From IMG/VR virus record IMGVR_UViG_3300046507_000599: DNA of 64,000 nucleotides, one strand, 5' to 3'. The translations under genes and the position numbers were made by a program. A model generated the notes under the pieces. The model made no database searches, was not told the origin of the DNA, and saw only the letters and a program-made list of their open reading frames with translations. Position 1 is the stretch's first letter; every line of letters starts with the position of its first letter. The stretch comes from an uncultured virus (IMG/VR IMGVR_UViG_3300046507_000599) (Duplodnaviria; Heunggongvirae; Uroviricota; Caudoviricetes). This document shows positions 40,734 to 61,055 of the stretch, piece after piece.

Positions 40734-40782
40734 TGAGCCATCACAGTGATACAGCCACTGCGAAGGGCCTCAAGAGACCCGC

Positions 40783-41251: not shown

Positions 41252-41319
41252 AGATTTCACTGGCTGGCCTTGGCGACAGGGCCAGACGGGAAATCAACCG
41301 ATCAAGCACGGAGCATCAA

Positions 41320-42099
41320 ATGAGCGAACAAACGCTTCAGCAACTGCTGGCCGAACGTGTCAGCACCTACGCCCTGTCTGATCGCCCTCGCGAGCTGATC
41401 GATGAGGGCATCGACAAGATGTTCAAAAGCGTCGTCGAAGACGCCTTCAGATCTTACGGCACCATCGGCGAGTCAATAAAAACGGCCGTGAAGGAAGCCT
41501 TTCCGGCCAATGTCACCGACATGTTTGAGCTTCAGCGCTACAACGCACTGATCGCCAATGCTTTGCGGGAGCGCTGGGAGGCTGCGGGCATGGAGTCGGC
41601 AATCATGAAGCAGGCCGACGCATCCATCACTGAGGTGTTGACCGGTGAAGGTCTGCTCACAGGTGAGATTTCGCTGAAGGATTTGCTCGACGCATTCATT
41701 GATGAACACAAAGAAGAGGCTGCGGACGAGCGATGGAGCGCCCCGGAAATCCGCATCATTGAAGACGACAGCCATTCTCACAAGTTCTACCACATCTACT
41801 TCGATCCGCAGCCAGAAGGTGGGAGTCGGTACAGCTACAGCAATGAGCGCCGTAGCGACTACAGCCTTAAACACAACATCCATGTGATGGTTGAAGGTGA
41901 GCGCGAAACCAGCGACCACTGGAGACCGAAAGTCGAATTCGGGAAGGTGTATAGCGCCCAGCTCGACGCGAAAAAGGTTTCGATCAAAATGAATATCCGC
42001 TCGAAATGGGAGCGCATCATGGCTTCGCTTTATTTCGGTGAAGCCGTCCTGCTGATCGACTGCGAGGAAAGCGATTTCTCTTACGGGTTCGACGACTGA
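41320..42099 (+). CDS. Hypothetical early protein
   Basis: GGAG RBS; 259 aa, acidic. Confidence 0.8.
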   Translation: MSEQTLQQLLAERVSTYALSDRPRELIDEGIDKMFKSVVEDAFRSYGTIGESIKTAVKEAFPANVTDMFELQRYNALIANALRERWEAAGMESAIMKQADASITEVLTGEGLLTGEISLKDLLDAFIDEHKEEAADERWSAPEIRIIEDDSHSHKFYHIYFDPQPEGGSRYSYSNERRSDYSLKHNIHVMVEGERETSDHWRPKVEFGKVYSAQLDAKKVSIKMNIRSKWERIMASLYFGEAVLLIDCEESDFSYGFDD

Positions 42100-42102
42100 A
42101 CA

Positions 42103-42349
42103 ACCAGCGCACGACAGCCTGTCGTTAACTGCCCGATCCTCTCTATGAGAGCGCATCGGTTTGCGATCTTCCAGACAGGGCGCCCGCTCGCGAGGGAGGT
42201 GCTGATTGAAGTTCAGCGAGATCGCAATCCGATGCGGACGAAACTGCGGCCTATAACCGCCCACCTGCATCAAATCCCAGAATCGGTTGTTATCGAGCGC
42301 TGGTGAACTGAACACGGCCGTGGAACTCGGCGCCGGAGACGTAACCGGC
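42103..42349 (+). ncRNA. Putative structured RNA
   Basis: Closing stem 42103-42110/42297-42304, 18-bp stem 42152-42169/42219-42236, several hairpins. Confidence 0.5.
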
Positions 42350-42850: not shown

Positions 42851-43043
42851 AGACTGCCCACTGAAGCCCGCCTCTCTCGCGGGCTTTTTTCTGCGTGTCG
42901 TACCGCAATGAGACCCCGCAGCTAGTCATCAATCTCCCGACAAATCCCGAATGCACTCCCCTCCGCGCCCAACGGCAGCCAGCGGAGCGAACGAGTGCAT
43001 CCGAGTTTTGTTGGATCAACACCCCGCCACTCTGGAGACGACC

Positions 43044-43448: not shown

Positions 43449-43636
43449 GCCCTCACATCCTGATCGATCAAGCCCTTGATGGTGTGTCGGTGCCCGCCGG
43501 CGAAGAAGACATCAGCCTGCTGGTGCAGGGCCTGATCACCCGCCTCTTCACCGACGGCGCAATCACCACCGACGAGTTCAACCACTATTGCAAACGCCTA
43601 CGTGACACCTGTCAGCGGCGCAAGGAGGACGCATGA
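43445..43636 (+). CDS. Hypothetical early protein
   Basis: Coupled TTG start; GAITTDEF..Y. Confidence 0.7.
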   Translation: MSPHILIDQALDGVSVPAGEEDISLLVQGLITRLFTDGAITTDEFNHYCKRLRDTCQRRKEDA

Positions 43637-43827
43637 GTACGGCACCGGTTAAATCGCTGATCGACGAGCAGCTGGAGGACATCGAACACAAGATCGCCCT
43701 GCTCGGCTTCGGCCTTCCCTTCAATGAGGTGATCGGCCGCAAGCGCGAGGATCTGGTCGCTAATCTCCCGCAGCGCCTGGCGCCGTCCATGAAGGGCAAA
43801 CGGATTGCCGTGAAGGTTCGGCCGTGA
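43633..43827 (+). CDS. Hypothetical early protein
   Basis: ATGA overlap, GGAGG RBS. Confidence 0.75.
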   Translation: MSTAPVKSLIDEQLEDIEHKIALLGFGLPFNEVIGRKREDLVANLPQRLAPSMKGKRIAVKVRP

Positions 43828-43940
43828 CCGGTCGCCAGCTTGCCCGCCGCATTCTGATTCGGCGCGGATCATTCTCTGCCATCGGCGTTTTCACCTTCTT
43901 GATGCTGCTCAGCGCCCTCGCCGACCGCATCACTCAATAA
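43824..43940 (+). CDS. Small membrane peptide (38 aa)
   Basis: GTGA overlap; MTGRQLARRILIRRGSFSAIGVFTFLMLLSALADRITQ. Confidence 0.55.
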   Translation: MTGRQLARRILIRRGSFSAIGVFTFLMLLSALADRITQ

Positions 43941-43983: not shown

Positions 43984-44802
43984 GTGAGCGCAGTAATGAA
44001 GCAGGAAGACCAACTGCCTGCAATGTCGGAGGCGGCACTCGTTGAAGTGCTGAGCAACAGCCTCTACCCGGGCGCAGAGAAAAATTCGGTAGTGATGGTG
44101 CTGGCTTACTGCCAGGCCGCGCATCTGGACCCAATGCTGAAGCCCGTGCATATCGTGCCGATCTGGAACGCCAAGGCGAAGAAGATGCAGGACACGGTCA
44201 TGCCTGGCATTGGACTCTATCGCATTCAAGCGGCGCGAACCGGACAGTACGCAGGAATCAGCGACCCTGAATACGGGCCACCAATCACCGCCAAGCTGGG
44301 TGGTGTCGATGTCACCTATCCGGAGTGGTGTCGGGTCACCGTCAAGCGCCAGATGTCGAACGGCCTCGTTGCAGAGTTCACCGCTAACGAGCGCTGGCTT
44401 GAGAACTACGCAACGGCCAGCAAGGACACCGTCGCACCAAACTCCATGTGGAAGCGCCGCGCTTTCGCACAGCTCGCCAAGTGCGCCGAGGCCCAAGCGC
44501 TGCGCAAGGCCTTTCCAGAGGTTGGATCGGCGCCGACCGCTGACGAGATGGAAGGAAAGATCTTCGATGAAGCGCCGCGCGATGTAAGTCCGCAGCGGCA
44601 GCAAGAGCCCGAGCCAGAAGCCCTCCCACCCTACTCCGATGATCTTCTGAAAGAGAACATCGAAAAATGGCGGCCGCTCATCGACGCAGGCAGGACCAAC
44701 CCTGAACACATCATCGCCAACGTCAGTAGCAAATACACGCTACGCGACGACCAGATCGAAACCATCCATAACCTGAAAGCCATCGACGGAGACACAGCAT
44801 GA
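43984..44802 (+). CDS. bet: Bet-like single-strand annealing protein
   Basis: LDP..K.VHIVP, GIGLYRI.A.RTG.YAG, KCAEAQALRKAFP. Confidence 0.92.
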   Translation: MSAVMKQEDQLPAMSEAALVEVLSNSLYPGAEKNSVVMVLAYCQAAHLDPMLKPVHIVPIWNAKAKKMQDTVMPGIGLYRIQAARTGQYAGISDPEYGPPITAKLGGVDVTYPEWCRVTVKRQMSNGLVAEFTANERWLENYATASKDTVAPNSMWKRRAFAQLAKCAEAQALRKAFPEVGSAPTADEMEGKIFDEAPRDVSPQRQQEPEPEALPPYSDDLLKENIEKWRPLIDAGRTNPEHIIANVSSKYTLRDDQIETIHNLKAIDGDTA

Positions 44803-46421
44803 AAATTCACAACGTAGCTCAAGGCTCCGCCGAGTGGCACGCACTGCGCGCTCAGCACTTCACCGCCTCCGAGGCGCCAGCAATGATGGGCGCTTCGAAG
44901 TACCAGACCCGCACCGACCTGCTGACCATGAAGAAAACCGGTATTACGCCGGAGGTCACTCAGGCCCAGCAGTACATCTTCGACAAAGGCCATGCAACTG
45001 AAGCGCTTGCCCGGCCGCTGGTTGAAGTCATGATCGGCGAGGAGCTGTATCCAGTCGTGGGCACCGACGGCAATCTGCTCGCCTCCATGGACGGCGCGAC
45101 GATGCTGGGCGAGACCCTTTTCGAGCACAAGCTTTGGAACGAATCGTTGGTCGCCCAGGTGAAGGCCGGCGAGCTGGATTCGCACTACTACTGGCAGCTT
45201 GAGCAGCAACTGCTGGTGAGCGGCGCCGAGCGCGTGATTTTCGTTTGCTCCGACGGCACTGCCGAAAACTTCGTGCACATGGAATACCGACCTGTCGCCG
45301 GCCGCGCAGCGCAGCTGGTCGAGGGCTGGAAACAGTTCGAGGCAGATCTGGCCACCTTCGAAATGGCTGACGCACCATCGATCGTCGTCGGCAAAGCGCC
45401 TGATGAACTGCCAGCGCTACGCATCGAACTGACCGGCATGGTCACCGCGAGCAACCTCAAGGTGTTCGAGGATTCGGCTCTCGCTGTCATCGACTCTGTG
45501 AAAACCACCCTGCAGACCGACCAAGACTTTGCCGACGCCAAGAAGGCGGTCAAGTGGTGCAGCGATGTCGAAGAAGCGGTTGCGGTAGCGAAGAAACAGG
45601 CGCTCTCCCAGACCCAAAGCATCGACGAGCTGTTCTCCTCGTTGGATCGCATCAGCGCTCATGCTCGCGAAACTCGCCTGAAGGTCGACAAGCTGGTCAA
45701 AGCTCAAGAACTGCTGGTGAAGACCAACATCAAGCAGAAGGCTGAGCAGGCGCTCGCGGATCACGTCGCAGCGATCAACAAGACGTTGGGCCGGGTGATG
45801 CTGCCAGCGGTTGCTTCAGACTTCGCCGGCGCGATGAAGAACAAACGCACCATTGCCAGCCTGCAGGACGCTGTCGATACCGAGCTGGCTCGAGCAAAAA
45901 TCGCTGCGAGCCAGTCAGCAGATGCCATTCGCTTGAATTTGACCAGCTTGGCCGAGCTCGTGCCCGACCATGCCTTCTTGTTCAACGACATCCAACAGCT
46001 CGTTCTGAAGGCCAACGATGACCTGGTCGCGCTGATCAAGGTGCGAATCTCTGAGCACCAGAAGGCTGAGGAGCAAAAAGCCGAGGCGCAGCGCGAGCAG
46101 ATCCGCCTACAGGAGCTGAAGCGAATCGATGACGAGGCGAAAGCCAAGGCGCCGGTCGAACCTGCACCGGTCGCCAGTCCAGCACCTGTGAAAGCCTCCG
46201 TTCCAGTTCAACCCGCCTCGAAGCCAGCGACCGCAACTGCGGCGCCGGCGAACCTGCAGGCCGAAGTGTTCGATCTGGAAGAGCTGATCAAAGCAGTTGC
46301 CTACGGCCAAGCGCCTATCTCTGTGTTGACCGTGAGCTGGGAAAACCTCGACGCGCTGGTCGCTGATCAAGGCAACAACTTCAGCATGGCCGGCGTGAGG
46401 CTGGTGAAGGTGGCAGCATGA
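44799..46421 (+). CDS. YqaJ/lambda-exonuclease family protein with long helical tail
   Basis: QGSAEW..LR...TASE, ASMDG, EHK, YYWQ..QQ. Confidence 0.92.
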   Translation: MKIHNVAQGSAEWHALRAQHFTASEAPAMMGASKYQTRTDLLTMKKTGITPEVTQAQQYIFDKGHATEALARPLVEVMIGEELYPVVGTDGNLLASMDGATMLGETLFEHKLWNESLVAQVKAGELDSHYYWQLEQQLLVSGAERVIFVCSDGTAENFVHMEYRPVAGRAAQLVEGWKQFEADLATFEMADAPSIVVGKAPDELPALRIELTGMVTASNLKVFEDSALAVIDSVKTTLQTDQDFADAKKAVKWCSDVEEAVAVAKKQALSQTQSIDELFSSLDRISAHARETRLKVDKLVKAQELLVKTNIKQKAEQALADHVAAINKTLGRVMLPAVASDFAGAMKNKRTIASLQDAVDTELARAKIAASQSADAIRLNLTSLAELVPDHAFLFNDIQQLVLKANDDLVALIKVRISEHQKAEEQKAEAQREQIRLQELKRIDDEAKAKAPVEPAPVASPAPVKASVPVQPASKPATATAAPANLQAEVFDLEELIKAVAYGQAPISVLTVSWENLDALVADQGNNFSMAGVRLVKVAA

Positions 46422-46663
46422 TCAGCAATCACCTCAACCTCGTCGAGCAGCACCGTTCGGATGCCGAATCGATCTCTGAACAAATCGCGCAGTACCTGGC
46501 CACCGGCGGGCGGATCGACCAACTGAAGAGCCCGCCGCGCAATCCGCTGCCACCGCCCCGCTCGAAGAAAATAGACCCTGAAACGGTCCTCAAGCGGCGG
46601 CGGCCGAAGCCGATATCGGCCGCCGACCGCAAGACTCTGCGCAAAATGGCGGACTCGATATGA
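46418..46663 (+). CDS. Hypothetical early protein
   Basis: Coupled ORF; homologue at 57768. Confidence 0.75.
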   Translation: MISNHLNLVEQHRSDAESISEQIAQYLATGGRIDQLKSPPRNPLPPPRSKKIDPETVLKRRRPKPISAADRKTLRKMADSI

Positions 46664-47124
46664 AGTCGAAACGAAAACCCAACAACGGCTTCGCCCGGGC
46701 TGAACGCAGCTGCCGGGCGCTGCTGCGCACCAACCACGTCGCGGTGGTGAACATCGACCCCAGCGGCAGCCAGATCATGGCGAACTGGAAGAGCTGCCGA
46801 CAGATCCGCAGTCTGGCGATCGCCAACGCTATTTTCGATTTCTCGTATCGCTGGACGATCTACATCGGCGCCATGTGTCGCGACGAGCGCGGCGCTGAGT
46901 ACATCAAGTCGGTCGAGATCTCGCCAGAGGGCATCTGCAAGGTCGAGCGCCTGACCGATGCGATCGAGCATTACTATCTGGAGCTGCGCAACAGCTGTAA
47001 CCCGACCCATATGGTGGCGTCAGGCTGGATCGCCATTCCGGACGAAGTTTCGATGGATGAAGCCGAAGCCGCGAAGCTGTTCTACGCCGCCGGCGCCTGG
47101 CATCAGGTGAAGGTAGCTGCGTGA
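46660..47124 (+). CDS. Hypothetical early protein
   Basis: Near-identical copy at 58007. Confidence 0.8.
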   Translation: MKSKRKPNNGFARAERSCRALLRTNHVAVVNIDPSGSQIMANWKSCRQIRSLAIANAIFDFSYRWTIYIGAMCRDERGAEYIKSVEISPEGICKVERLTDAIEHYYLELRNSCNPTHMVASGWIAIPDEVSMDEAEAAKLFYAAGAWHQVKVAA

Positions 47125-47199
47125 GACGTTCCAGACCCCAACAACGCAAACGACAGACCTGGCTGGACTTGCCGGCCAGCGGAATTGAAGAGGTAGGCC

Positions 47200-47514
47200 A
47201 TGGCCAAGACTGGACAAGAGCGATCTGCGAAGGCCGCACTGAAGCGGATCGAGTTCGACGAAAAGGAGCTGCGGCACAGGCTAAGGCTGGGCACCCGGCA
47301 GAAGCTTGAAGAGTTGATGGCTTGGAACGATATCGACGAGATCAGCGAAGCAATCCAGAACCTGATCCTGAACGCCCATGCCCTGGGCCCGACCCTCTCC
47401 TATCAGACAATCGAATGTCCGCGCCACAAAATCACAGTTAGCGAAAACGTGGCGCGGATAATTCAAGCTGCTGGCCAGCGCCAGGCCGCACGACTAGATG
47501 TCGAAGAAACTTAA
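47200..47514 (+). CDS. Hypothetical early protein
   Basis: GAGG RBS; MAKTGQERSAK. Confidence 0.75.
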   Translation: MAKTGQERSAKAALKRIEFDEKELRHRLRLGTRQKLEELMAWNDIDEISEAIQNLILNAHALGPTLSYQTIECPRHKITVSENVARIIQAAGQRQAARLDVEET

Positions 47515-47642
47515 TCATGCAGCGTGACACCTGACACGCCAGCTTTTTGCATCTCGCCAAGACTAGCGCATCGGTTCAAAGCGACAAGCATCGCGGAGTT
47601 GAAACGTAATCCCGGCGACGATTTAGAGGCCCCAACAGCTTT

Positions 47643-47921
47643 TTAAAGTTTCTCTTTTACGTAAGGAAGCATGAGATGCAGGGCGGTGTCTTTCAGCTCA
47701 CCGAACACCGCTTCGTCAACCTGGTCTAGTCGAAGATTGAACGAGGTTTCATGACCGCGAGCTCGGCCGTTTAAGTCCCAACTGATTTCAGGCTGCTCGC
47801 CTCCAACCAGAGGCACATATCCTACGAGCGTGTCAGTGCTTGCGGGATCAATACCATTGATTATCGCAGTGTGTCCGTTGCTGACTTTAATTTCGATCGG
47901 CTTGATCGGGATGATCGGCAT
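47643..47921 (-). CDS. Antisense moron, hypothetical
   Basis: GGAG RBS; 92 aa. Confidence 0.6.
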   Translation of the reverse strand: MPIIPIKPIEIKVSNGHTAIINGIDPASTDTLVGYVPLVGGEQPEISWDLNGRARGHETSFNLRLDQVDEAVFGELKDTALHLMLPYVKEKL

Positions 47922-48107
47922 TTCACAACTCCATCTGTCACCGGCCCCATCGCCGGTCACCCGTAATACCCCAAACCAAACCAAATTGCCACCACCGGTC
48001 ACGGAAGTGGGGGCGCCTGACTGGAGGTATCCACGAGTCACAAGCGCGCGATCGCCGAGGATTAAAACATGAGTCGAATTAGTAAAAATCAATTAAAAAT
48101 CTAAATT

Positions 48108-49010
48108 TCAATCACCCTTGTTAGCTTCAGACTTGTTAAAAAAAGCATTATCTCCAAACATTTCAAGATCATACCTAAAGGCCGCAATTGTTTCCGACGC
48201 CGCTGCTCGCTCGGGGTCATTGCGAAGTGACTTTTCTACTAGACTGTGTTGAGATGAGTTCATCTTGCCATACAGCTCAGATACTTCTCGTGCCTTACCG
48301 AACAGATACTGCGCAAATCCATCTGGCCAATAATAATTCGTAGGCGAAATCTTACCACCCTTAATAGAAACCCGACTTACTCGCATCTTATTTGCCTGAC
48401 TATGCTTGGCAAGTCCAAGCACTATGAATCTTGGTAATTTCGTGTACACCATAATCTCACCGTTCGTACTCACAAGTATATCCATATGCATATTTCTTAG
48501 CAGGTAACGATTTATGTTCACAGGCACGCTTGCGTTAGTGGATTCTATGGGCTCCAGCGGAAAAAGATGCTGCTCATAAATTCCTGGGGTATTTGTCTTT
48601 CCAAGCAGAAAATCAGCAAGCCCCCTCAAAATAGATACTTCTGTATCGTTCTGTTGATCGCAAACTCTGGGATTCTTCTCGCGCATATAGCTAAGAGTGC
48701 GCCAACTCAAAGATGCGCAAAACTTTAAAAGCCATCCCTCATAACTAGCAGTATCATTCTCATTCTTTACGAACGGATAAAATATCTTATTGGCAAACTC
48801 TCGCTCCCAGCCTGAGAAAAGCTGTTCGCAGCTTCCGCACAACCAATAGTCCTTAGCAATGTCTTGTGCCCGCCTATTAATATTTTCACTTAGACGAATG
48901 TATCCAGTTGCAGACGTTTCCTTAACCCATTTGCCCACAAACTTTGGAATAAAGTGACTTAGCTTAAGCTCACCAGACACTCCGCATAACTTGCATTCTC
49001 CTTGAGCCAT
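48108..49010 (-). CDS. Antisense moron, HNH-like zinc-finger protein
   Basis: CKLC...SHFIPK...LCGSCEQ; AT-rich. Confidence 0.7.
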   Translation of the reverse strand: MAQGECKLCGVSGELKLSHFIPKFVGKWVKETSATGYIRLSENINRRAQDIAKDYWLCGSCEQLFSGWEREFANKIFYPFVKNENDTASYEGWLLKFCASLSWRTLSYMREKNPRVCDQQNDTEVSILRGLADFLLGKTNTPGIYEQHLFPLEPIESTNASVPVNINRYLLRNMHMDILVSTNGEIMVYTKLPRFIVLGLAKHSQANKMRVSRVSIKGGKISPTNYYWPDGFAQYLFGKAREVSELYGKMNSSQHSLVEKSLRNDPERAAASETIAAFRYDLEMFGDNAFFNKSEANKGD

Positions 49011-49100
49011 GACTCACCCACTCTTTTATAGTCGAACTACTAATACCCCACTTCTACGAATCACGCCAGCCGGCGAGGCAATCGGCTGTCTGGAGCAATT

Positions 49101-49970
49101 ATGAATCCCTACCTGATCACCGGCCCGGCCCAGATCGGCATCAGTGGTGGTCGCACCAGCGGGCACATGGTCTACCAGATCCTCGAAGCGCACGGCGGTA
49201 CCATGCCGCCAGATGTACACCTGTTCTTTCAGAACACCGGCAAGGAGCGCGAGGAAACGCTGATCTTTATCGATCAGATCGCCAAGCGCTGGAAAGTGAA
49301 CATCGTATGGATGGAATGGTGCCGGGTTTATGGCCAGCCGGACGACGCGCCCTGGTACAAGCTGGTGGACTTCGAAACGGCCAGCCGCAACGGCGAACCA
49401 TTCACCATGATGCTCGAGTATTACGCCGGATACCGGAAGGCAGAGAAAAACCTGCCTCCGGTGCTGCCGAACTTCTCGAACAACATGTGCACCGCGTATT
49501 TGAAGGTGAAGATCGGCGAGAAACACATGCGCGCTTTGGGCTACACCGAGTGGGATTGCGTCGTCGGCATCCGGTACGACGAACCGAAGCGCTACCACCG
49601 CATGATGGCGGCCAACGATCGAGGCGGCACCCGATGGGACAACGTCTGCCCCTCCTACACCGCCGGCATCACCAAGGAGGATGTCGGTTCGTTCTGGTCG
49701 AACCAGCCCTTCGATCTGGGACTGGATTCCGACTTCGGCAACTGCGATCTGTGCTGGAAGAAAAACGAAGGCAAGTTGATCAAGACCATCATGGATGATC
49801 CGTCGCGGGTAATCTGGTGGTCAGGAACAGAGGAACGATTCGGCCAGGTGTTCCGGCAGGACCGTGCAGATTACAAAACCATGGGCTGGTCTGCCGAGCA
49901 ACGCTCCCGGCAGACCGATTTTGATTTCGAATACCTAGCCGAAGATATCGACTGCTTCTGTGGCGACTAG
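49101..49970 (+). CDS. NinC-like / PAPS reductase family adenine nucleotide alpha-hydrolase
   Basis: ISGGRTS PP-loop, NTGKE, CT..LK, GIRYDE, GNCDLC, terminal CFC. Confidence 0.85.
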   Translation: MNPYLITGPAQIGISGGRTSGHMVYQILEAHGGTMPPDVHLFFQNTGKEREETLIFIDQIAKRWKVNIVWMEWCRVYGQPDDAPWYKLVDFETASRNGEPFTMMLEYYAGYRKAEKNLPPVLPNFSNNMCTAYLKVKIGEKHMRALGYTEWDCVVGIRYDEPKRYHRMMAANDRGGTRWDNVCPSYTAGITKEDVGSFWSNQPFDLGLDSDFGNCDLCWKKNEGKLIKTIMDDPSRVIWWSGTEERFGQVFRQDRADYKTMGWSAEQRSRQTDFDFEYLAEDIDCFCGD

Positions 49971-50392
49971 CCCTTCCAGGCAGAAACAAGACCAGTCAAG
50001 GCACCGATGATGCCCACGGTTATGCCAAACCAGTAGGTCACTTTTTCCCTAGCTTGCTTGTTGGCTTCCCACAGATGAGCCTTCACATGCTTTATGCCGT
50101 TCTCGGACAGGTAAAGGATGGGCTCGAGCGGAATTGGATAATCCCATTCGATTCGATCATACATTGAAGGATCGGACTTACTTGGAAGCGGAACGGCTGC
50201 CATCTTCGCTTTGTGTTCGTAATACTTCGAGTGGATCTGATCTAAGCGGCGCCAAGCATGATCGAGATCAGTGTAATAGGAACTAGTGAAGCCGCCCTCT
50301 GGGTCGGGATCGGGATTCGGGTCGTACTCCTCCATCTTTGCGATCACGTGCTCTTGGCGCCATAACGCAAGTCGGTACTCAAAAAAATTCAA
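49967..50392 (-). CDS. Antisense moron with C-terminal TM
   Basis: 141 aa; WFGITVGIIGALTGLVS. Confidence 0.65.
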   Translation of the reverse strand: MNFFEYRLALWRQEHVIAKMEEYDPNPDPDPEGGFTSSYYTDLDHAWRRLDQIHSKYYEHKAKMAAVPLPSKSDPSMYDRIEWDYPIPLEPILYLSENGIKHVKAHLWEANKQAREKVTYWFGITVGIIGALTGLVSAWKG

Positions 50393-50443
50393 CTCTATAA
50401 GCCTCCGAAAATTTCGGCAGAACTATACGTCTGGGAACCCCCT

Positions 50444-51367
50444 ATGCCTACAGCAATCGATTTGTTCGCCGGACTCGGCGGATGGTCCACCGGTGCCCGC
50501 AACGCTGGCGTCGAAGTTATTTGGGCAGCCAACCACTGGCCGGTCGCGGTCGAATGGCACAGCGCCAACCACCCGGAAGCCATTCACATCTGCCAAGATC
50601 TGCATCAAGCGGACTGGTCGAAGGTGCCCGCTCACGACATCATGCTCGCGTCACCCTGCTGTCAGGGCCATTCGAAAGCTCGGGGCAAGAAGTCAGGCAA
50701 TGCGCAGCATGACGCATCCCGCTCGACAGCATGGGCAGTTGTGTCCGCCGCCGAGTTCCACAAGCCCGAAGTAGTGCTGGTCGAGAATGTCGAAGAGTTC
50801 ACGGACTGGGCGTTGTATCCAGCCTGGTCACAGGCCATGGCAGCGCTGGGCTACATGATTGCGCCGCACGTAGTCGACTGCGCCGACCTCGGCGTGCCAC
50901 AGCACCGAGTTCGCCTATTTCTGGTCTGCACCCGCAGCAAATCGCCGCTGATGCTCGAACTGCACCGGCGCCAGCACGTTCCCGCCGCCAGTTTCCTGGA
51001 GTTCAACGATGGGCGCTGGTCACCAATCGAGAAACCGGGACGTGCACAGGCCACCCTCGACCGGGTTCGCAATGGTAGAGAGCGATTCGGCGATCAGTTC
51101 ATCATGCCCTACTACGGCAAGGGCTCAGGGCTAACCGGTCGCGATATCAACCGTCCGATCGGCACCATCACAACGCTGGATCGCTGGGCGCTGGTTCGCG
51201 GCGATGAAATGCGGATGTTGTCGGCAAACGAGGCGCTCGCAGCAATGTCGTTTCCCAAAGAGACCCTTCGTCCCGACAACCACCGACTGACCATGCACAT
51301 GGCCGGCAACGCTGTGCCGCCGCTCGCTGGGCAGCGGATAATCGAAGCTCTATTCGAAGCGGCATGA
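50444..51367 (+). CDS. C5 cytosine DNA methyltransferase
   Basis: DLFAGLGG, SPCCQ, ENV, Q.R.R, GNAV. Confidence 0.93.
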   Translation: MPTAIDLFAGLGGWSTGARNAGVEVIWAANHWPVAVEWHSANHPEAIHICQDLHQADWSKVPAHDIMLASPCCQGHSKARGKKSGNAQHDASRSTAWAVVSAAEFHKPEVVLVENVEEFTDWALYPAWSQAMAALGYMIAPHVVDCADLGVPQHRVRLFLVCTRSKSPLMLELHRRQHVPAASFLEFNDGRWSPIEKPGRAQATLDRVRNGRERFGDQFIMPYYGKGSGLTGRDINRPIGTITTLDRWALVRGDEMRMLSANEALAAMSFPKETLRPDNHRLTMHMAGNAVPPLAGQRIIEALFEAA

Positions 51368-51376
51368 CGCAATAAA

Positions 51377-51625
51377 TTATCGCGTAGATATCAGTTGGTT
51401 CCGATTTGCATCAAACGTCGACAAGAGCGGTGCAGGATCGGAAATCCTGTTTATAGCTACCCAGGCTCGAGTGCGCTCCACATCGAACGACTGCTTTAGC
51501 CCGGACATAGAATCGACCAGTGTTCTTGAAATCCGATATCGGCCGCAGTCCACACAATTGCGCTCATGCCAATCGCCACCAGACTCGTAGGTTACCGCGG
51601 GCTCTTTGCAAATTAGGCAAGCCAT
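51377..51625 (-). CDS. Antisense moron, small zinc-ribbon protein
   Basis: CLIC...CVDCGRY; near-identical copy at 61989. Confidence 0.7.
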   Translation of the reverse strand: MACLICKEPAVTYESGGDWHERNCVDCGRYRISRTLVDSMSGLKQSFDVERTRAWVAINRISDPAPLLSTFDANRNQLISTR

Positions 51626-51715
51626 CTATACCACTCCTTGTAAATGACACTTCAACTGTAGCTGACCCCTCAACAACCTCCACCGCCCGGGCATGCCCCG
51701 GCATAGGTATCCGTC

Positions 51716-52372
51716 ATGCCCACAGAAAACCGTATCGACTGTCCAGCACTGCACAAGCGCAGCAAAAGCTACCCGTTCGGCGACCGCGTGCCGCGCACGG
51801 TGAAGATGTTCACGACCGTCGTGGCTGATCCGATGCCGGGAATTACATCCGCTCTCTTGCAGGGTGATGGCCCGATCTGCCCTGAAGGCCAAATCTTTCC
51901 CGTATGGACCAACAGCCACGGCGCGGTAGCGGCTGTGCTGCCAGATGGCAAGCATCTTGGTCTGCGCCCTGCTGAGTTCGAGGTCGAGACCTGGCATGAT
52001 CTTGCGCCGGCGCCAGCGTCAGGCGTCACGCTTCAGGCCGACCGGGAAAACCGTATCTACTTGGCTGGACCGATGACGGGAATCAAGGACTTCAATTTCC
52101 CAGCCTTCAATACGATGGCAGCCAAGCTCCGCGCCCGAGGCTACACCGTCGCAAACCCGACTGAGCATGGTGTCGTTGAAGGCGCCAAATGGGGCGACTA
52201 CATGGCTTACGACCTGACGCGTCTGGGCTTGTGCGGAATGGTCGCCCTTCTGCCGAACTGGGAAGAATCAAAGTGCGCTCGCCTCGAAGTGCATATAGCC
52301 GAGCAGCTCGGTATGGCCATCGTGGATGCCCATGATCTGGTATCGATGCCGGAATTACGCCGCGATGCCTGA
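51716..52372 (+). CDS. Fusion protein with C-terminal DUF4406-like domain
   Basis: IYLAGPMTG..DFNFPAF...NP...LE. Confidence 0.8.
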   Translation: MPTENRIDCPALHKRSKSYPFGDRVPRTVKMFTTVVADPMPGITSALLQGDGPICPEGQIFPVWTNSHGAVAAVLPDGKHLGLRPAEFEVETWHDLAPAPASGVTLQADRENRIYLAGPMTGIKDFNFPAFNTMAAKLRARGYTVANPTEHGVVEGAKWGDYMAYDLTRLGLCGMVALLPNWEESKCARLEVHIAEQLGMAIVDAHDLVSMPELRRDA

Positions 52373-52398
52373 AGCAGCCGCTCTGTACCGTAATACAG

Positions 52399-53052
52399 CT
52401 ATTTGACCAATCGGAGGTAAGGCCGCTCTTTCGGCCCTAAGAGAAATTCTTCCTTGGTCGCAGCAAGAAGTTTCGATAATTTTTGAAGGTAGATGGAGCA
52501 AAGCTCATCCGTACTCAGATCCCTGAGTTCCTGCGGAATATTCTCTGGCAAGCTATGGAAAACTTGGCGGACCTCTCCAATAGATTTGGGGATACTGACG
52601 TAGTACTTAATCGATTCACCACCACCCAAGTCCATCTCCCATCCAGATCCACCGTTCTGATCACCCATGAAAAATGATGTGGATTCGAACGGCGGCTTTT
52701 CTAACTTTGCTAAGTCATTGCCGTTGAGACTGTGGATCGTTGCTGATACAGAAACATCTAAGCGCCCCTGCTTTTCCAGATTGTTTCTGGCCTCGACGAA
52801 ATAACGCATAAGAGGATCGGCACGCATTTGATCTTGAAATGGTGCGTACCAGCTATTGAATCTGGACTCACCAACAATGGATCGCAGATTTTGTATAACA
52901 AATGTCACGGATCTTCCGAAGACCAAGACGTTCCTCAAGCCCGCTGATCGCGCTGAGGGATCGCCACTTTTGAGAACATTAAGTCCAAAATAGGCGGTAT
53001 CGAGCACTTGCTCGGCACGCTTGATCGCGAGATGTGTCAACTCTGCATCCAT
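52399..53052 (-). CDS. Antisense moron, possibly HEPN-like
   Basis: GRSVTFVIQ...WY...YFVEARNNLEK. Confidence 0.65.
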   Translation of the reverse strand: MDAELTHLAIKRAEQVLDTAYFGLNVLKSGDPSARSAGLRNVLVFGRSVTFVIQNLRSIVGESRFNSWYAPFQDQMRADPLMRYFVEARNNLEKQGRLDVSVSATIHSLNGNDLAKLEKPPFESTSFFMGDQNGGSGWEMDLGGGESIKYYVSIPKSIGEVRQVFHSLPENIPQELRDLSTDELCSIYLQKLSKLLAATKEEFLLGPKERPYLRLVK

Positions 53053-53166
53053 TTTTTTGGCCAGCCTTTTCCTAGGATTTACGAATGTAACCCCGGAATT
53101 GAAAGGCTAAAAGAAAAAACCTCCCCTCCCCCTTCAAAGTCAGCCGCTATAGCGGCAGGAACCCCT

Positions 53167-53661
53167 ATGGTCGATGCAAACATTCACAACTCGTTGAACA
53201 CGCTCACGGCAAGCCAGATGGCCAAGCTGCTGGTGATGCATTACGGAATCGATAAGTTCGACTACAAGTACGACAGCCTAGGCGATGCACCAAATGGCCT
53301 CGTTACGCTTGAAGATTTGGCGTCCATGTCCGGCGAGGATCTGGATCAGCTTTACGAGGAGAGTTCGCACGATGATGCGGTGAACGAGGTGCGTTACAGC
53401 GCAGTAAACTCCCCCGGAATCCCGAGTTGGTGCCACTACAGTTGGGAGCGCAACTACGAGGTCGAGGTGAAGGCCTTCATCCTGCCCGATGGCCGTGCTC
53501 TTGCTTTTTGTGAGATGAGCGGCGGCGGCAAGCATGCCGAGCCAGACGCCTACCCTTGGGTTGAAGAGGCCAAATTCATCAAGTTCTCTTGCGTCGAAGA
53601 GCGCGTCATCAAGACTTACAAATTTGAGGATATTCCAGAAGCCTCAGAGGTGACGCCATGA
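53167..53661 (+). CDS. Hypothetical early protein
   Basis: AGGA RBS; GGGKH motif. Confidence 0.75.
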   Translation: MVDANIHNSLNTLTASQMAKLLVMHYGIDKFDYKYDSLGDAPNGLVTLEDLASMSGEDLDQLYEESSHDDAVNEVRYSAVNSPGIPSWCHYSWERNYEVEVKAFILPDGRALAFCEMSGGGKHAEPDAYPWVEEAKFIKFSCVEERVIKTYKFEDIPEASEVTP

Positions 53662-53710
53662 TCTTCGCCCCGCTCTACATGGCCTACCTCATCTACAAGG
53701 GGCCGTGGCG

Positions 53711-54217
53711 ATGACCGGAATGATCGGCGCCCGCGCGGTGCCGCCGAAGCACAAGAGCGTCGAGTGGTATACGCCGGCCTGGATCTTCGACCGGCTGGGA
53801 TTGCAGTTTGACCTCGACCCATCCAGCCCGCACGACTACGTAACGGCGGTACCAGCGAAGACGAAGTACACGATCTTCGATGACGGCCTGTCGAAGGAAT
53901 GGTCGGGCCGGGTGTGGATGAACCCACCATACGGCCCCGACACAGGGTTCTGGATGCGCCGCCTGATTGCTCATGGCAACGGCATTGCGCTGGTGTTCAG
54001 CCGCACGGATGCCGAGTGGTTTCAGGAAGCAATGGCCAGTGCATCGTCGACCCTGTTGATCAGGGGTCGGATTGCCTTTGTGCCCGGCCACGAAAACAGC
54101 CACAAGAAAGGCCGATCAGGTGCTGGCAGCGCGATGTTTGCCTTCGGCGATGAATGCGCGATCGCGCTACAGAGCCTGGCGGATCTCGGAGTTCTGGTTC
54201 CCCGAATCGCCGACTGA
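53711..54217 (+). CDS. Phage N6-adenine DNA methyltransferase (Dam-like)
   Basis: EWYTP, FDLDP, DGL..W, WMNPPY, RTD..WF, GRI.F. Confidence 0.9.
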   Translation: MTGMIGARAVPPKHKSVEWYTPAWIFDRLGLQFDLDPSSPHDYVTAVPAKTKYTIFDDGLSKEWSGRVWMNPPYGPDTGFWMRRLIAHGNGIALVFSRTDAEWFQEAMASASSTLLIRGRIAFVPGHENSHKKGRSGAGSAMFAFGDECAIALQSLADLGVLVPRIAD

Positions 54218-54284
54218 CCTGTCTTCGATGTAACCCCTCCCCCAACTCAACAGCCTGCCGGTGTGCGGCGGGCGAGGATTCGTT

Positions 54285-54644
54285 ATGTCCGATTTTCAAA
54301 CCGAAACCACGCCCACCGCGCGCAAGCAGCACAAGTGCGGCGAGTGCTACGGCCTGATTGAGCCGGGCCAGAAATACCAGCTTGTGTCTGGCTGCTGGGA
54401 TGGACGCATGGATTCCTGCAAAACCTGCATGCCCTGCCTCGAAGCGCGCGTCTGGGCGATCGCTCAGCCCGAGTGGATGGGTGATGGCGAGCACCTCTAC
54501 TACTTCGGCCGGCTCGACGAGGACTTGGCCGACTTGGCTCAAGAAATCAGGTCGCAAGATGGCCGGCGGTTCCGGACTTATCGATTACAACTGCTCATGG
54601 CTCGACGCAGAAACGCAGCTCAGGCACGTCGCCAAGCTGCATAA
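54285..54644 (+). CDS. Hypothetical zinc-binding phage protein
   Basis: ARK.HKCGEC...CMPC. Confidence 0.75.
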   Translation: MSDFQTETTPTARKQHKCGECYGLIEPGQKYQLVSGCWDGRMDSCKTCMPCLEARVWAIAQPEWMGDGEHLYYFGRLDEDLADLAQEIRSQDGRRFRTYRLQLLMARRRNAAQARRQAA

Positions 54645-54689
54645 CCCATCCCACCTTCTGCCGCCACGCGCGGCATGGAGCAATACCTC

Positions 54690-54932
54690 ATGGAAACCGA
54701 AATCCTCTCTGACGAGGAGCTGGCCGAACTCACCGGCTACAAGGCCAGGGCCTACCAACGCCGCTGGCTAATTGATCGCCAGTGGGTGTTCGTCGAAAGC
54801 CGCGGCAAACGTCCACTGGTGGGTCGGATGTATGCCCGCATGAAGCTGGGCATGATCAGCCCGACCATTGCCGATCCAAACCCGCCGCCGGCCGCGCCGG
54901 CATGGACGCCAGACTATTCGCGAGTGAACTGA
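54690..54932 (+). CDS. xis: Excisionase (DUF4224-type)
   Basis: LSDEELAELTGY....Q..WL...G.P; directly before int. Confidence 0.85.
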   Translation: METEILSDEELAELTGYKARAYQRRWLIDRQWVFVESRGKRPLVGRMYARMKLGMISPTIADPNPPPAAPAWTPDYSRVN

Positions 54933-54933
54933 T

Positions 54934-55983
54934 ATGCGCCCCCGCAAGACCGAGCACCAGCACCTTCCCCCTCGGATGTACAAGCGCTCACGGAAGCGCA
55001 AAAACGGTAGTACATGGACCGCGTATTACTACCGCGACCTGCTCGGCAACGACATCCCTCTGGGCAAGGATCTTGACAAGGCCAGGCTGAAGTGGGCCGA
55101 GCTCGAAGCCAAGGAAAAGCCCCTCGACCTGCGCACCATGAAGGGAATCTTCGACCGGTACATTCGTGATGTGGTGCCAAAGAAAGCACCGCGCACGCAG
55201 AAGGACAACTTGGCGGAAATCAAGCAGCTTCGGCCGATGTTCGATAGCGCGCCGATCGACTCGATCACGCCAGCAACGATTGCTGGCTACCGAGACGCAA
55301 GATCGGCGAAGGTCCGGGCGAACCGTGAGATCGCTACCCTCTCCCACATTTTCAACATTGCCCGGGAGTGGGGGCTAACGACGAAGGAAAACCCCTGCCA
55401 AGGTGTGCGCAAGAACAAGGAGACGCCGAGGGACTATTACGCGAATGATGTGGTTTGGGAGGCGGTTTACAAGAAGGCAGCTCAGGAGCTGAAGGAAGCG
55501 ATGGACCTAGCCTATCTGACCGGGCAAAGGCCGGCAGATGTGCTGGTTATGCGGAAGGATGATGTTGAAGGCGGATATCTGACTGTTCAGCAGAACAAGA
55601 CGCACAAGAAGCTGCGCATTCAGATGACGACCGCCGGAGAGGCGAACAGCCTGGGAGTTTTGATCGCGGCGATCACAGAACGAAACGCCGCGCACGTTTC
55701 GTGTTACCTGATCATCAACCGGAGCGGTAAACGGATGACTGCGACGATGCTGAGGAAGCGATGGGACGCGGCGCGAGAGAAGGCGAAACTGGAAGCTCTT
55801 GAGCAGGGAGACGAGCTGCTGGCTAAGCGGATCGGTGAATTCCAGTTCCGGGATATTCGGCCGAAAGCGGCGTCGGAAATCAGCGATGTTGGTGACGCTA
55901 GCCTGTTGCTCGGGCACACAAAAGGCGACATTACTGAGCGGGTTTATCGCCGTGTCGGCGCGATCGCCAAACCCTCAAAATAG
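54934..55983 (+). CDS. int: Tyrosine integrase
   Basis: TGQR..D, FRDIR, LLGH, VY catalytic residues; adjacent to attR. Confidence 0.95.
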   Translation: MRPRKTEHQHLPPRMYKRSRKRKNGSTWTAYYYRDLLGNDIPLGKDLDKARLKWAELEAKEKPLDLRTMKGIFDRYIRDVVPKKAPRTQKDNLAEIKQLRPMFDSAPIDSITPATIAGYRDARSAKVRANREIATLSHIFNIAREWGLTTKENPCQGVRKNKETPRDYYANDVVWEAVYKKAAQELKEAMDLAYLTGQRPADVLVMRKDDVEGGYLTVQQNKTHKKLRIQMTTAGEANSLGVLIAAITERNAAHVSCYLIINRSGKRMTATMLRKRWDAAREKAKLEALEQGDELLAKRIGEFQFRDIRPKAASEISDVGDASLLLGHTKGDITERVYRRVGAIAKPSK

Positions 55984-56108
55984 ACAAAAAAATGCGTTCC
56001 ATAACTCGAAACACGCCCCTTGTAGAATGCGGTCTGTAGAGGTGCTGCTAAACAAAAGTATTGGAACGAAAAAACGTCTGACGCCGCGTATTCGGCGGCT
56101 TTCCATAG

Positions 56109-56169
56109 CGGTCTTGAAAACCGTCGACTGTAACAGGTCCATGAGTTCGAATCCCATCGCCTCCGCCAT
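56109..56169 (+). repeat. attR core (3' part of tRNA-Ser)
   Basis: Identical to 18-78; lacks D arm and 5' acceptor strand. Confidence 0.95.
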
Positions 56170-56331
56170 ATTTGGTACCGACAAAGCCCTGATTATTCAG
56201 GGCTTTGTCGTTTCTGGGGTTTGAGGTTTCCACCGCGCTGGTTTAGGCGTTACAAAATTTTCTGCTTTTTCTCCTTTCTCCGGCGTCCTGCCAAACGCAA
56301 AAAATTCTTCACGTAACACGGTGCTACGCTG

Positions 56332-58471: not shown

Positions 58472-58546
58472 GACGTTTTCGCACCCAACAACGCAAACGA
58501 CAGACCTGGCTGGACTTGCCGGCCAGCGGAATTGAAGAGGTAGGCC

Positions 58547-58930
58547 ATGGCCAAGGAAAAGGAACTGACGGAGGAAGCCAAGAAGCAGCGCAGGAAGCGC
58601 GAGAAGGCAGCAGCAAAGGACGCTGCATTGGGCGTCGAGAAGTTTACGGTTGAAGTGGCCGGCGTGTTCAAGCCAGACCTCAAGCGGGTCATGGCCGCCC
58701 ACGGTTTCAACAACCAGCAGGAGGTATATCAGAATCTGCTGCGGAACCTGATCGCCGCTGACTTCGAAACCCAGGCAAAGATGCTGAAATGTGTCACGAC
58801 ACCTTTTATTGTTACCGAAAAGGGGTTGCGACATCTGAGGGATGCCGGGCTGCGACAACTTGTGAAGAATCCTGGCGAACCGGAGGACGAAATCTTTGAA
58901 CAGAACATCAATAGTGAAGCTGACAAATAA
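58547..58930 (+). CDS. Hypothetical early protein
   Basis: Same RBS context as 47200. Confidence 0.75.
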   Translation: MAKEKELTEEAKKQRRKREKAAAKDAALGVEKFTVEVAGVFKPDLKRVMAAHGFNNQQEVYQNLLRNLIAADFETQAKMLKCVTTPFIVTEKGLRHLRDAGLRQLVKNPGEPEDEIFEQNINSEADK

Positions 58931-58953
58931 CAATCCGCGTATTGAACGATCTG

Positions 58954-59898
58954 TTATTCAGCCGCAAATATTATTCCTTCAATCATTTGGAGCGGTCTAT
59001 TTAAATCGAGTCGCCAACCACTTAAATTAGGAGCCCGCGATTGAGCTTCATACTTGACCAGGGTTTCCGAGCAAAAGTCAACAGCAGGCAGCACAGTATC
59101 AAAAACGCTATACATTGTTTTTAGTTCTTCGCCCCGCGTTTGAATTTTGCACTCACCAAAAATGCTCAACTTCCCAAAATTGTCGGACGCTTCTTGAAAT
59201 TCCTGAAAGACCCATTCCCTTTCACTGCGCAAAGAGCATTTGGCCACTGAGCCGTCCGACAACTTAAATTCCGCCATGTGCAACAAAAGACAAAATGAGA
59301 TGAGAATTTTCGATCTGTAAGCGTTCAGATCATGTTCATTAAATTGTATTTCAGTTTTTCTCAGCACCTCGAATAAATCATTCATAAACTCATCTGAACT
59401 GAATACTGGCTCAACCTTAATGAACCGCAACAAATAGACTATCAAATCAAGCTTTGCTTGACTAACGCCTTCCTTTATCATGCAGACATTTTTTACCTTA
59501 TCCTCTTTACATATATTATCAACAATAGACCCTAGCTTTTGAGCAGAACATTTCAGCTTATATTTTAAGTCTTCCTCAGAGCATTTTTTTACCTGATACC
59601 TTAGCAGCCTCTTAACATATAAGGGGAAACCTTTAATATCTAGAGATTGGCTACCGTCTGCCAGAAAGTCATTGAAAAATTTGAGACTAAGATAAAATGA
59701 GTCTATTGATTCATTTGTCAAACCGCGATCACGGGTATCTTTGTGAGCGACGAAATCCGCCGCTTCCCTGAACACCTTGTGATCTCCAGCGTACGCCCTC
59801 AATCGCATAAAAAGCATTTCGACATCAAGCTCATCAAAATTGCCGCTGGAAATTTTATCGATAGTTTTCTGAGCTTTGATTCTTTCAATTAGTTTCAA
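58954..59898 (-). CDS. Antisense moron, hypothetical
   Basis: AT-rich; GGAG RBS plus TTG start; FREAADFVAH motif. Confidence 0.75.
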   Translation of the reverse strand: MKLIERIKAQKTIDKISSGNFDELDVEMLFMRLRAYAGDHKVFREAADFVAHKDTRDRGLTNESIDSFYLSLKFFNDFLADGSQSLDIKGFPLYVKRLLRYQVKKCSEEDLKYKLKCSAQKLGSIVDNICKEDKVKNVCMIKEGVSQAKLDLIVYLLRFIKVEPVFSSDEFMNDLFEVLRKTEIQFNEHDLNAYRSKILISFCLLLHMAEFKLSDGSVAKCSLRSEREWVFQEFQEASDNFGKLSIFGECKIQTRGEELKTMYSVFDTVLPAVDFCSETLVKYEAQSRAPNLSGWRLDLNRPLQMIEGIIFAAE

Positions 59899-59999
59899 GA
59901 CTAACTCCAGCGTCTTTCTGATACGACACAAATACCCCCCTCCTACGAATCACGCCAGCCAACGGGGATCTTCGTTGCGAATCGAGTAATTTTCCGAAT

Positions 60000-60665
60000 T
60001 TACGAGCCCTTGGTGTCTTGTCGCTGGAACTTTTTCGAGAGTTTTGGAAACAACAATCCGCTACCAAACCCAAGATCATTTTTTGTATCAACCCAAGCAT
60101 GTTCAAGTTCTGCTCTCAGTAAGTCGCGATATTCTTTTATCTTTAGTAGAGGCTTTTCGGTTGGACTTTGGTATGCCACCTTAATTGCGATTCGATTGGC
60201 GTCACCACCAAATTTTATTATTTTTCTAGAGCGATCATCGTCTCGACTTAGAAGAAGATTAACTCTTGCTCGAAGCTGCGACATCCTAGAGCATGCTTTG
60301 TAGTATTCATCAGAACCTTTGAAGCCCGTCTGCTTCGAGTTCATATTGACAACGTAAGTCATCAAAGATATCAACTCCGCTGCCGCCTCTCTAAGCTCTG
60401 CCATCCAATGATGCCTAAAATTGCTTAAATTGCCCCGAATTTGGTTTTTCTGAACCCCGACCGTTAACCAAGCCACTAAGATTGCAACTACTACCCCAGC
60501 TCCAGCAGGGATAACGGTTGCCCAATCTGTGTCCGAATCCATATGTACATATATCGGTAATTCTTTCGAACCCACATGAACTTCATTGCCGACTTGCTTA
60601 CCCAGCACTTGCCCGTCATATTTGATATCAGCGGCGTTAAGTTCGAATGATTTAGGTAGATCCAT
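60000..60665 (-). CDS. Antisense moron, single-TM protein
   Basis: AT-rich; TM then FRHHW..ELR. Confidence 0.7.
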   Translation of the reverse strand: MDLPKSFELNAADIKYDGQVLGKQVGNEVHVGSKELPIYVHMDSDTDWATVIPAGAGVVVAILVAWLTVGVQKNQIRGNLSNFRHHWMAELREAAAELISLMTYVVNMNSKQTGFKGSDEYYKACSRMSQLRARVNLLLSRDDDRSRKIIKFGGDANRIAIKVAYQSPTEKPLLKIKEYRDLLRAELEHAWVDTKNDLGFGSGLLFPKLSKKFQRQDTKGS

Positions 60666-60702
60666 ATCGTAATCAGAGTCCAAATTTAAAAGGATATACC
60701 AT

Positions 60703-60807
60703 ATGGCCATCACTTACGGAAGCATCTGCTCCGGCATTGAGGCGGCAACACTTGCATGGAAGCCGCTCGGCATGCGCATGCGCATGCCCCGTTTCGACGG
60801 GATCTGA
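60703..60807 (+). pseudogene. N-terminal stub of a second C5-methyltransferase family
   Basis: MAITYGSICSGIEAATLAWKPLGM, then unrelated sequence and stop. Confidence 0.65.
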
Positions 60808-61055
60808 ATGGGCCTTCTCCTCCAAGAGAAGACCCAACGTATCAGCCAAATTTTACATCGCTACCGCCGATCATCCTGGCCAAAGCCGGAGCAATGCAGC
60901 AATCAACGCCAAAACTGCGATCAACACGTCAAGCCATTCACATACCTGCGCCATCCCACACCTCAATAGTTGTTTGGACTCCTTGCGTAGGGAGATGGCG
61001 AACGCGAACACATAAATTTATTCAACCGTTCGTAAAGGCCCGGAAAGGATCCCGC

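Follow-up and report, generated by a model that had tools for sequence, protein, structure and literature searches.

Within the 64,000-nucleotide stretch of uncultured virus DNA analysed here (IMG/VR record IMGVR_UViG_3300046507_000599, hereafter the window) lies a complete lambdoid prophage, whose leftward early operon carries an array of about nine short conserved sequences, which we call linkers, between the recombination genes recT/yqaJ (43984-46421) and xis/int. Our comparison with related prophages revealed that the linkers are conserved and ordered, that the cargo on both sides of them is variable, that recombination breakpoints are concentrated at them, and that gene families are faithful to their slots. 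We consider it probable, from these sequence comparisons, that the region from the recombination genes to xis is an ordered array of slots, in which the linkers would act as homology joints, backward genes would enter between them, and the two strands would carry separate programmes.

The relatives were collected by means of a conserved early gene of 154 amino acids (aa), which gave 106 related loci, 26 from genomes and 80 from viral records, nearly all of them prophages of the P. fluorescens group. Together with two copies in the window they make a starting set of 108 regions, reduced to 95 by de-duplication and a minimum length of 1.5 kb. When 46600-56000 was compared with the related loci by BLASTN, homology in the exo-xis region shrank to islands of 30-70 bp with both flanks replaced (106 loci), at positions 47150, 47941, 49033, 51674, 53124, 53655, 54230 and 54639. 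A k-mer search in the intergenic DNA of the 95 non-redundant regions recovered the identical set, along with one more linker, K8, and the elements U and V on the antisense side. The linkers are laid out as a stop codon, a C/A-rich spacer, a GC hairpin, a ribosome-binding site (RBS) and frequently the first codons of the next gene. The anchor gene and the elements found in the window are as follows.

46660-47124, plus strand: conserved 154-aa early gene, phrog_5434, used as the anchor for collecting relatives
47150-47209, plus strand: K0, a hairpin with a G.U pair, an RBS and the start of a 104-aa gene (47200-47514, phrog_5439)
47940-47957, minus strand: U, a hairpin heading the antisense 5' untranslated region, common to K1 and K2 in relatives (65 matches in the 95 regions)
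47960-48030, plus strand: K1, a C-run, hairpin and RBS, with a weak minus-strand -10 candidate TATTAC
49040-49078, plus strand: K2, from the island comparison
51666-51730, plus strand: K3, including an MPTEN-type start common to about 10 downstream families
53121-53160, plus strand: K4, with a perfect 14-bp palindrome ahead of the RBS
53658-53714, plus strand: K5, an 18-codon hydrophobic mini-ORF (open reading frame) whose stop overlaps the next start
54230-54283, plus strand: K6, a stem of 8 bp that includes a plus-strand U.G pair
54640-54682, plus strand: K7, ahead of xis and int

The first-pass annotation of this DNA had described conserved C-rich leader modules. The leaders are conserved across relatives, but the roughly nine linkers are mutually distinct in sequence and are not copies of one element; only K1 and K2 share a part, the upstream one, and mostly one copy of each linker is present per genome. 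K0 (47150), K5 (53658) and K7 (54640) are found in addition to the four leaders noted earlier. The 11 motif patterns describing these elements match 24-98 times each in the 95 regions and once in total in their shuffled copies, and a 23-mer of K2 has 83 exact matches in GTDB genomes, the 80 listed being all from Pseudomonadaceae. Four relatives (L234, L285, L289 and L293) have a K1-type upstream half fused to a K2 core, as would be expected if recombination in the shared part deletes the K1 slot. The window itself holds a second set, since in a tandem prophage remnant K0 (58497), K2 (about 59933), K3 (about 62280) and K6 (about 63905) recur in the order of the main copy with other cargo; the earlier claim that leaders recur there behind different genes is borne out for K2 and K6, and extends to K0 and K3.

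The order of the linkers is kept in all 86 of the 95 regions which have at least three of them; K1 was excluded from the order tests, and K1 matches were also found after K2. A search with the K4 motif gave 46 loci, at least 5 of them repeating the first set, and the order is kept in 44; most of the other 34 loci of that search are chance matches outside Pseudomonas. The cultured, inducible phage phiAH14a has K0, U, K2, K4, K5, K6 and K7 in this order, together with an ERF recombinase. Aligned at the linkers, the 95 regions have variable cargo on both sides, as the first-pass annotation had anticipated: 344 backward genes in 185 families (138 of them singletons) and 625 forward genes in 167, with a GC content of 0.49 and 0.59, respectively. 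These counts come from our own codon-model script, which missed the RmrT gene at 38125 and made some doubtful short calls. As many as 9-20 unrelated families follow one and the same linker, while individual families keep to their slot, for example in 18/18, 18/18, 13/13 and 17/18 occurrences. Backward genes stand ahead of K1 in 35/48 cases, of K2 in 57/75, of K3 in 37/65 and of K4 in 49/77 (57-76%), and are rare ahead of K5-K8.

Such distinct, single and ordered linkers with slot-faithful cargo are unlike attC arrays, and they make it very improbable that the linkers are sites of a site-specific recombinase which moves integron-like cassettes. Most linkers are indeed short inverted repeats, which have a GCCG..CGGC core in common directly before the RBS; however, no second recombinase besides int was found in 38-56 kb, and there is no Rfam match.

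The ends of shared segments point to exchange by another route. Among segments of at least 250 bp and at least 90% identity, in the 90 regions with at least three linkers, 332 of 699 left ends (47%) and 271 of 825 right ends (33%) fall in linker windows, which make up 9.4% of the DNA, against 22-27% of ends at other junctions on 10.6% of the DNA, the locus pairs behind these counts not being independent. Per junction, 83-92% of the segments arriving at a linker end there, compared with 35-83% at other junctions; the linkers are the strongest but not the sole breakpoints, because these rates are high at other junctions too. Moreover, the families on either side of K2, K3, K4, K6 and K7 are unlinked (p 0.19-0.71). 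One exchange can be followed within the window itself.

51150-51707: a block 96-100% identical per 50 bp (98% overall) to the remnant at 61762-62319, which starts within a methyltransferase gene and stops at the K3 RBS

This block suggests two steps, namely a non-homologous entry at the 3' end of a sense gene and then a homology-based spread. In 92 of 191 pairs a backward gene has the same sense gene tail-to-tail with it, and from these sequences the point of arrival of new backward genes seems to be the 3' end of the sense gene, with no linker involved. The order, the breakpoints, the unlinked flanks and the K3 block support the linkers as fixed exchange boundaries of Botstein's type, which is what the first-pass annotation had proposed, within the limit that other junctions are breakpoints as well.

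The cargo of the window illustrates both strands of the array.

47643-47921, minus strand: antisense gene 1, 92 aa from an RBS-bearing ATG, no family
48108-49010, minus strand: antisense gene 2, 300 aa, phrog_26326
49101-49970, plus strand: slot cargo, a PAPS-reductase/SspD-like protein
49967-50392, minus strand: antisense gene 3, 141 aa, phrog_19471, whose stop overlaps the sense stop
50444-51367, plus strand: slot cargo, a C5 cytosine methyltransferase, PF00145
51377-51625, minus strand: antisense gene 4, 82 aa, with two CxxC pairs
51716-52372, plus strand: slot cargo, a chimeric protein with a C-terminal DUF4406
52399-53052, minus strand: antisense gene 5, 217 aa, of the lambda Ea47 family, PF26900
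53711-54217, plus strand: a Dam-like methyltransferase after K5

All five minus-strand ORFs, which the first-pass annotation had called morons interleaved with the sense genes, are present and have a lower GC content (0.43-0.51) than the sense genes (0.54-0.61); four of them start 36-69 nt ahead of a C-run, hairpin and RBS, again as described. For antisense gene 1 an alternative 149-aa TTG frame extends through the leader, and the sense gene behind K1 in the window is decayed, with ACG in place of the relatives' ATG. Antisense gene 2 has an N-terminal zinc motif with invariant C9/H19/C58/C61, which may be HNH-like, and one of its homologues is named HNH endonuclease by its source. The family of antisense gene 4 has 20 occurrences, 13 of them ahead of K3, and no named family; an atlas search with this gene gave unnamed clusters only. 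Foldseek against the PDB gave no match at E<=0.001 for antisense genes 2 and 5. The predicted four-helix bundle of gene 5 is possibly HEPN-like, the structural comparison being tied between HEPN proteins and generic bundles: 2hsb has Z 8.8 (root-mean-square deviation 3.4, 109 aligned) and p130Cas Z 9.0 (3.8, 124), and at the HEPN RxxxxH motif R89 is invariant but K94 stands where H is expected. Among other backward genes, one of 62 aa (family 23; 11202-11390 in L011 and 23 other copies) has the leader V of its own and lies ahead of K2 in 17 of 24 cases, sometimes ahead of a duplicated K0. In the remnant, 60700-61055 holds a decayed forward gene start and a short CATGCG repeat ahead of a methyltransferase, with a similar relic in L082, and the K3 start codon at 62327 is ATA, a later ATG at 62342 opening an unrelated 194-aa gene; this may be a trace of in-frame docking behind shared first codons.

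Scans with hidden Markov models took 150 of the 185 backward and 144 of the 167 forward families, after length and score filters. PADLOC matched 12 of the 150 backward families at E<=1e-5, as a raw count: PDC-S31 (twice), SLATT (twice), PDC-S33 (RelA/SpoT; twice), a TIR effector, PD-T7-4, AbiP, a NucC-like protein and PDC-S15, the twelfth match being a SEC-C motif artefact. Any Pfam match is found in 22 of the 150, adding putAbiC, PIN and several DUFs. On the forward strand 22 of 144 families matched, 16 of them methyltransferase-like, 3 SspD/PAPS-like and 3 others, which include a type IV restriction domain and LmuA. The first-pass annotation had regarded the positions of the backward genes as defence slots; matches occur in the family, although none of the window's five antisense genes has one at E<=1e-5, and backward genes as defence slots are plausible on these protein matches.

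How the backward genes are transcribed merits attention. It had been proposed that each leader is itself a leftward lysogen promoter, so that any gene docked before it would be expressed, and that two leaders read GGGG-TATTAT/TATTAC on the minus strand like a -10 box. TATTAC is present at 47967-62 and TATTAT is absent; the other minus-strand reads are GGGG-TATTAG (49045-40) and GGGG-TATTTG (59935-30). At K1 and K2 with an antisense gene upstream, the -10 score does peak at GGGG-TA, 17 nt after TGGC (means 0.7 and 1.2), at least 4 of 6 positions agree in 17 of 26 K1 cases, and the 5' hairpin and RBS follow; in a K2-anchored set 11 of 79 alleles read GATGAT/GATAAT and so gain the -7 T, and backward genes are concentrated at K1-K4. 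However, the common K1/K2 hexamers lack the -7 T, at least 4 of 6 positions agree in only 4 of 25 K2 cases, and where the upstream gene is a sense gene TATTTG is still found in 5 of 11 cases. A -10 score above 4 is found in 4 of 27 K1 and 6 of 46 K2 leaders with a backward gene, whereas at K3 (18/35), K4 (22/42) and K6 (7/10) the backward genes more frequently bring their own -10, the position of which varies, and no fixed register exists at K4 or K6. A promoter scan by tool found no promoter-like site within any leader, and by eye the TGGCAC..TTGC spacing of RpoN is not present. A complete promoter in each leader is for these reasons doubtful. Sigma-32 and RpoN readings of the leaders were also tried and rejected, the spacing being unfit by eye.

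A different picture is given by the divergent junctions that lack a leader, such as that of antisense gene 3 (49967), a leaderless one with the region's strongest promoter match.

50422-50450, minus strand: TAGGCA-17-TATAGT, a predicted sigma-70 promoter with its -35 over the start codon of the methyltransferase gene, an example of the leaderless type

The tool scan returned this as one of two sites where 5.5 are expected in shuffles, so there is no enrichment by the scan alone. Of the 44 leaderless divergent junctions among relatives, 26 have a minus-strand TAnnnT that precedes the sense ATG by 16-18 nt, and 29 reach a -10 score above 4. Such a score is found in 7 of 44 when the window is shifted, in 4 of 44 for the opposite strand and in 1 of 31 sense-sense junctions. 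Many of the leaderless junctions contain no more of K2 than its 3' arm and RBS, a 17-nt spacer places the -35 over the ATG and codon 2, and the -35 score exceeds 1 in 81% compared with 24% at random. These sequence counts give good support to a half-promoter role at leaderless junctions, where the sense ATG and the 3' half of the leader would supply the -35 and spacer. This half-promoter is what stands of the earlier proposal that leaders supply lysogen promoters, while the motifs in K1 and K2 are poor and the scan finds no site there. No plus-strand promoter-like site was found in 47000-56300, and a plus-strand -10 score above 4 at 12-20 nt from the ATG occurs in none of the K junction classes.

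The backward genes are mostly not closed by terminators. Our script, which is limited to the intrinsic type and recovered 3 of 3 control terminators, found terminator-like sites at 7 of 192 backward genes, and the median gap to the tail-to-tail sense stop is 9 nt, so that the backward transcripts should overlap the early genes. The silencing of backward genes by pL read-through, as the first-pass annotation suggested, would fit the geometry. In lambdoid phages sieB lies opposite the pL operon. Antisense control of sieB is described in P22 (PMC12197685).

Several results weigh against reading the region as an ordered slot array with linkers as joints. The order is broken in 2 of the 46 K4-anchored loci, and linkers are often missing: among 76 loci reaching K7, K1 is present in 36, K3 in 54 and K8 in 25. 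The flanks of K5 are linked (p 0.004), an exception among six linkers. At tail-to-tail junctions 83% of the sense-side segments end, and at leaderless divergent junctions 99% of the right-side ones. No PADLOC match at E<=1e-5 was found for 138 of the 150 backward families. As to the half-promoter, the -35 test is based on few N-terminal alleles, the CA of the -35 is supplied by the ATG in any case, and the minus-strand TAnnnT is invariant at K8 (16/16) although backward genes are rare there. The conservation of the linker cores, 0.91-0.99 against 0.853 at fourfold sites of the anchor gene, speaks for the array, but the core values are inflated by picking the linkers by similarity. Finally, the linker stems have almost no two-sided compensatory change, so that this comparison gives no proof of an RNA structure.

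The last point bears on the possibility that the linkers are purely cis-regulatory, serving in translation initiation, RNA stability or the binding of phage or host proteins, with breakpoints seen there since selection purges other illegitimate recombination, as in moron accretion. Each linker has an RBS and begins at the upstream stop, G.U pairs lie on the plus strand in K0 and K6, and the loops of K0, K6, K7 and U vary more than the nearly invariant stems (64-82% against 93-100%). When single sequences are folded, K4, K6 and K7 are more stable than their shuffles (z -1.9 to -2.5) and K0-K3 are not. Gene ends outside the linkers are also breakpoints, and boundary sequences are absent at most mosaic junctions according to PMC3029335. 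However, 9-20 unrelated families behind one linker argue against gene-specific control, a structural role should permit compensatory change whereas the primary sequence is nearly fixed, as homology joints need, and for families to reassort freely across 35-bp islands, precise illegitimate events would have to have occurred many times independently. Stems this invariant are compatible both with selection for pairing and with selection for the sequence itself, and do not decide between them. On balance a purely cis-regulatory role appears unlikely. Rfam, searched with the whole window at gathering score, matched only the tRNA and gave no family such as C4 or put for the leaders. Two specific readings were also rejected: the U hairpin as an RsmA-type GGA loop is weak, a common allele losing the GGA, and the C-rich leader part, at only about 25 nt, is too short for a Rho rut site. 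K5 and K8, the latter seen in relatives, are tiny hydrophobic ORFs with stop-start overlap, possibly membrane micropeptides or translational couplers, and a second K5-like allele exists.

In the slot-array reading, which we prefer, each slot would open with its own short linker, and the linkers would have originated as translation-start regions of the pL transcript and would remain so. At the same time the phage RecT/YqaJ, or ERF in phiAH14a, may use them as homology joints of 30-70 bp; a 30-bp minimum for Red-beta and traces of homology at mosaic borders are described in PMC3945230. Because the linkers differ in sequence, crossovers would swap the slot contents without scrambling their order. 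New backward genes would come by rare non-homologous entry between a sense stop and the next hairpin, would carry their own -10 or take a -35 formed by the sense ATG and the 3' half of the linker, and would then spread through crossovers in the two flanks, namely the sense gene and the linker. The forward cargo, with its methyltransferases and PAPS-reductase-like proteins, would act against restriction in lytic growth, and the backward cargo would be expressed in the lysogen, partly as anti-phage defence; without terminators its transcripts would enter the early genes, and the two strands would exclude each other. A tentative extension is that the lineage shares a natural assembly standard, with barcoded linkers selected for recombination compatibility and one-gene slots reshuffled as in overlap cloning, forward genes for lytic counter-defence and backward ones for lysogen defence, a latent -35 from the neighbour's start codon, and a head-on shut-off.

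The region appears to work like the linkers of Botstein and Campbell and the boundary sequences of HK620 (Susskind and Botstein 1978; Clark et al. 2001; via PMC2839356 and PMC3029335), where short conserved sequences flank modules and hold their place during homologous exchange in lambdoid phages. Here, too, short conserved sequences stand between non-homologous modules in fixed position and order with reassortment, K5 excepted; the difference is that about nine distinct linkers lie in 7-8 kb at the scale of single genes, and were counted, with tests of breakpoints and linkage, in about 95 prophages. The PeSL cassettes of the T4-type phages RB49 and phi1 (PMC2839356) are alike in being intergenic from stop to ATG with a GC stem-loop and RBS, and they are tied to ORFans and were proposed and shown as recombination sites. 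PeSLs repeat a single motif about 50 times, with a terminator and a strong sigma-70 promoter in the forward direction, and recombine mutually into mini-circles, whereas the present linkers are mutually distinct and ordered, have no forward promoter match and carry backward cargo; to judge from the sequences, they are not PeSLs. With lambdoid morons (the concept of Hendrix and Juhala, PMC2839356) the backward genes share low GC, a solitary position opposite the operon and, in one case, kinship to lambda Ea47, and like morons they are likely to be lysogen-expressed; they differ in the scarcity of terminator-like sites (7/192), in the many promoter halves taken from the neighbour's start codon, and in their siting at conserved joints. 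In the P2/P4 defence hotspots (PMC13586616) defence-like cargo is likewise swapped rapidly between conserved flanks, but there in one or two large loci between core genes, and here in many one-gene slots between 30-70 bp linkers with a low share of recognisable defence genes. In listings and excerpts of the literature, including PMC4936722 on phiAH14a and PMC13182921 on P. syringae prophages, we found no account of these linkers, and a prior note is possible.

The setting of the array in the window is given by the following features.

54690-54932: xis, downstream of K7
54934-55983: int, after xis
56109-56169, plus strand: att repeat, a match to the 3' part of the tRNA at 1-78, marking the prophage end
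58497-63935, plus strand: tandem remnant with K0, K2, K3 and K6

The prophage extends over about 56 kb from the tRNA at 1-78, Ser-TGA by its anticodon in the sequence, to the att repeat at about 56109-56169, and the remnant lies downstream, with antisense genes at 58954, 60000, 61989 and 63309. Further short conserved islands with variable flanks were seen left of recT (40720-40780, 40980-41040, 41240-41300, 42080-42160, 42200-42260, 42920-43040, 43620-43680 and 43820-43920), and the linker design seems to cover the entire leftward operon. An 81-aa early gene at 46418-46663, conserved in the remnant at 57768, has a weak match to the SutA RNAP-binding domain (E 1.5e-5, under the Pfam cut-off). 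Between the repressor and pL, a rex-like position, lies an RmrT/RmrA toxin-antitoxin pair (38125-39946; PADLOC, E 6e-27 and 8e-134). Accessory genes are also found elsewhere (11534-12886, 29379-30458, 23816-24346 and 31722-32366): the tail region has one for a TPR protein, a gene resembling the exonuclease VII large subunit lies near the terminase, and the late region has two orphans on the plus strand.

Whether phage mosaics form at conserved linkers or by random joining followed by selection is an old debate (PMC3945230, PMC3029335), for which this family offers a dense and countable case, directly testable since phiAH14a is cultured and inducible. As search tags the linkers, starting from one anchor, brought together 185 families of backward and 167 of forward genes from the 95 regions. 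Most are unannotated, and the tagged families are a candidate list of defence and counter-defence genes; if the assembly-standard reading is true, the backward families lacking annotation, about 135, would amount to a collection of single-gene anti-phage systems not known so far. The promoter overlapping a start codon, in turn, suggests a simple route by which foreign genes may come to be expressed on arrival.

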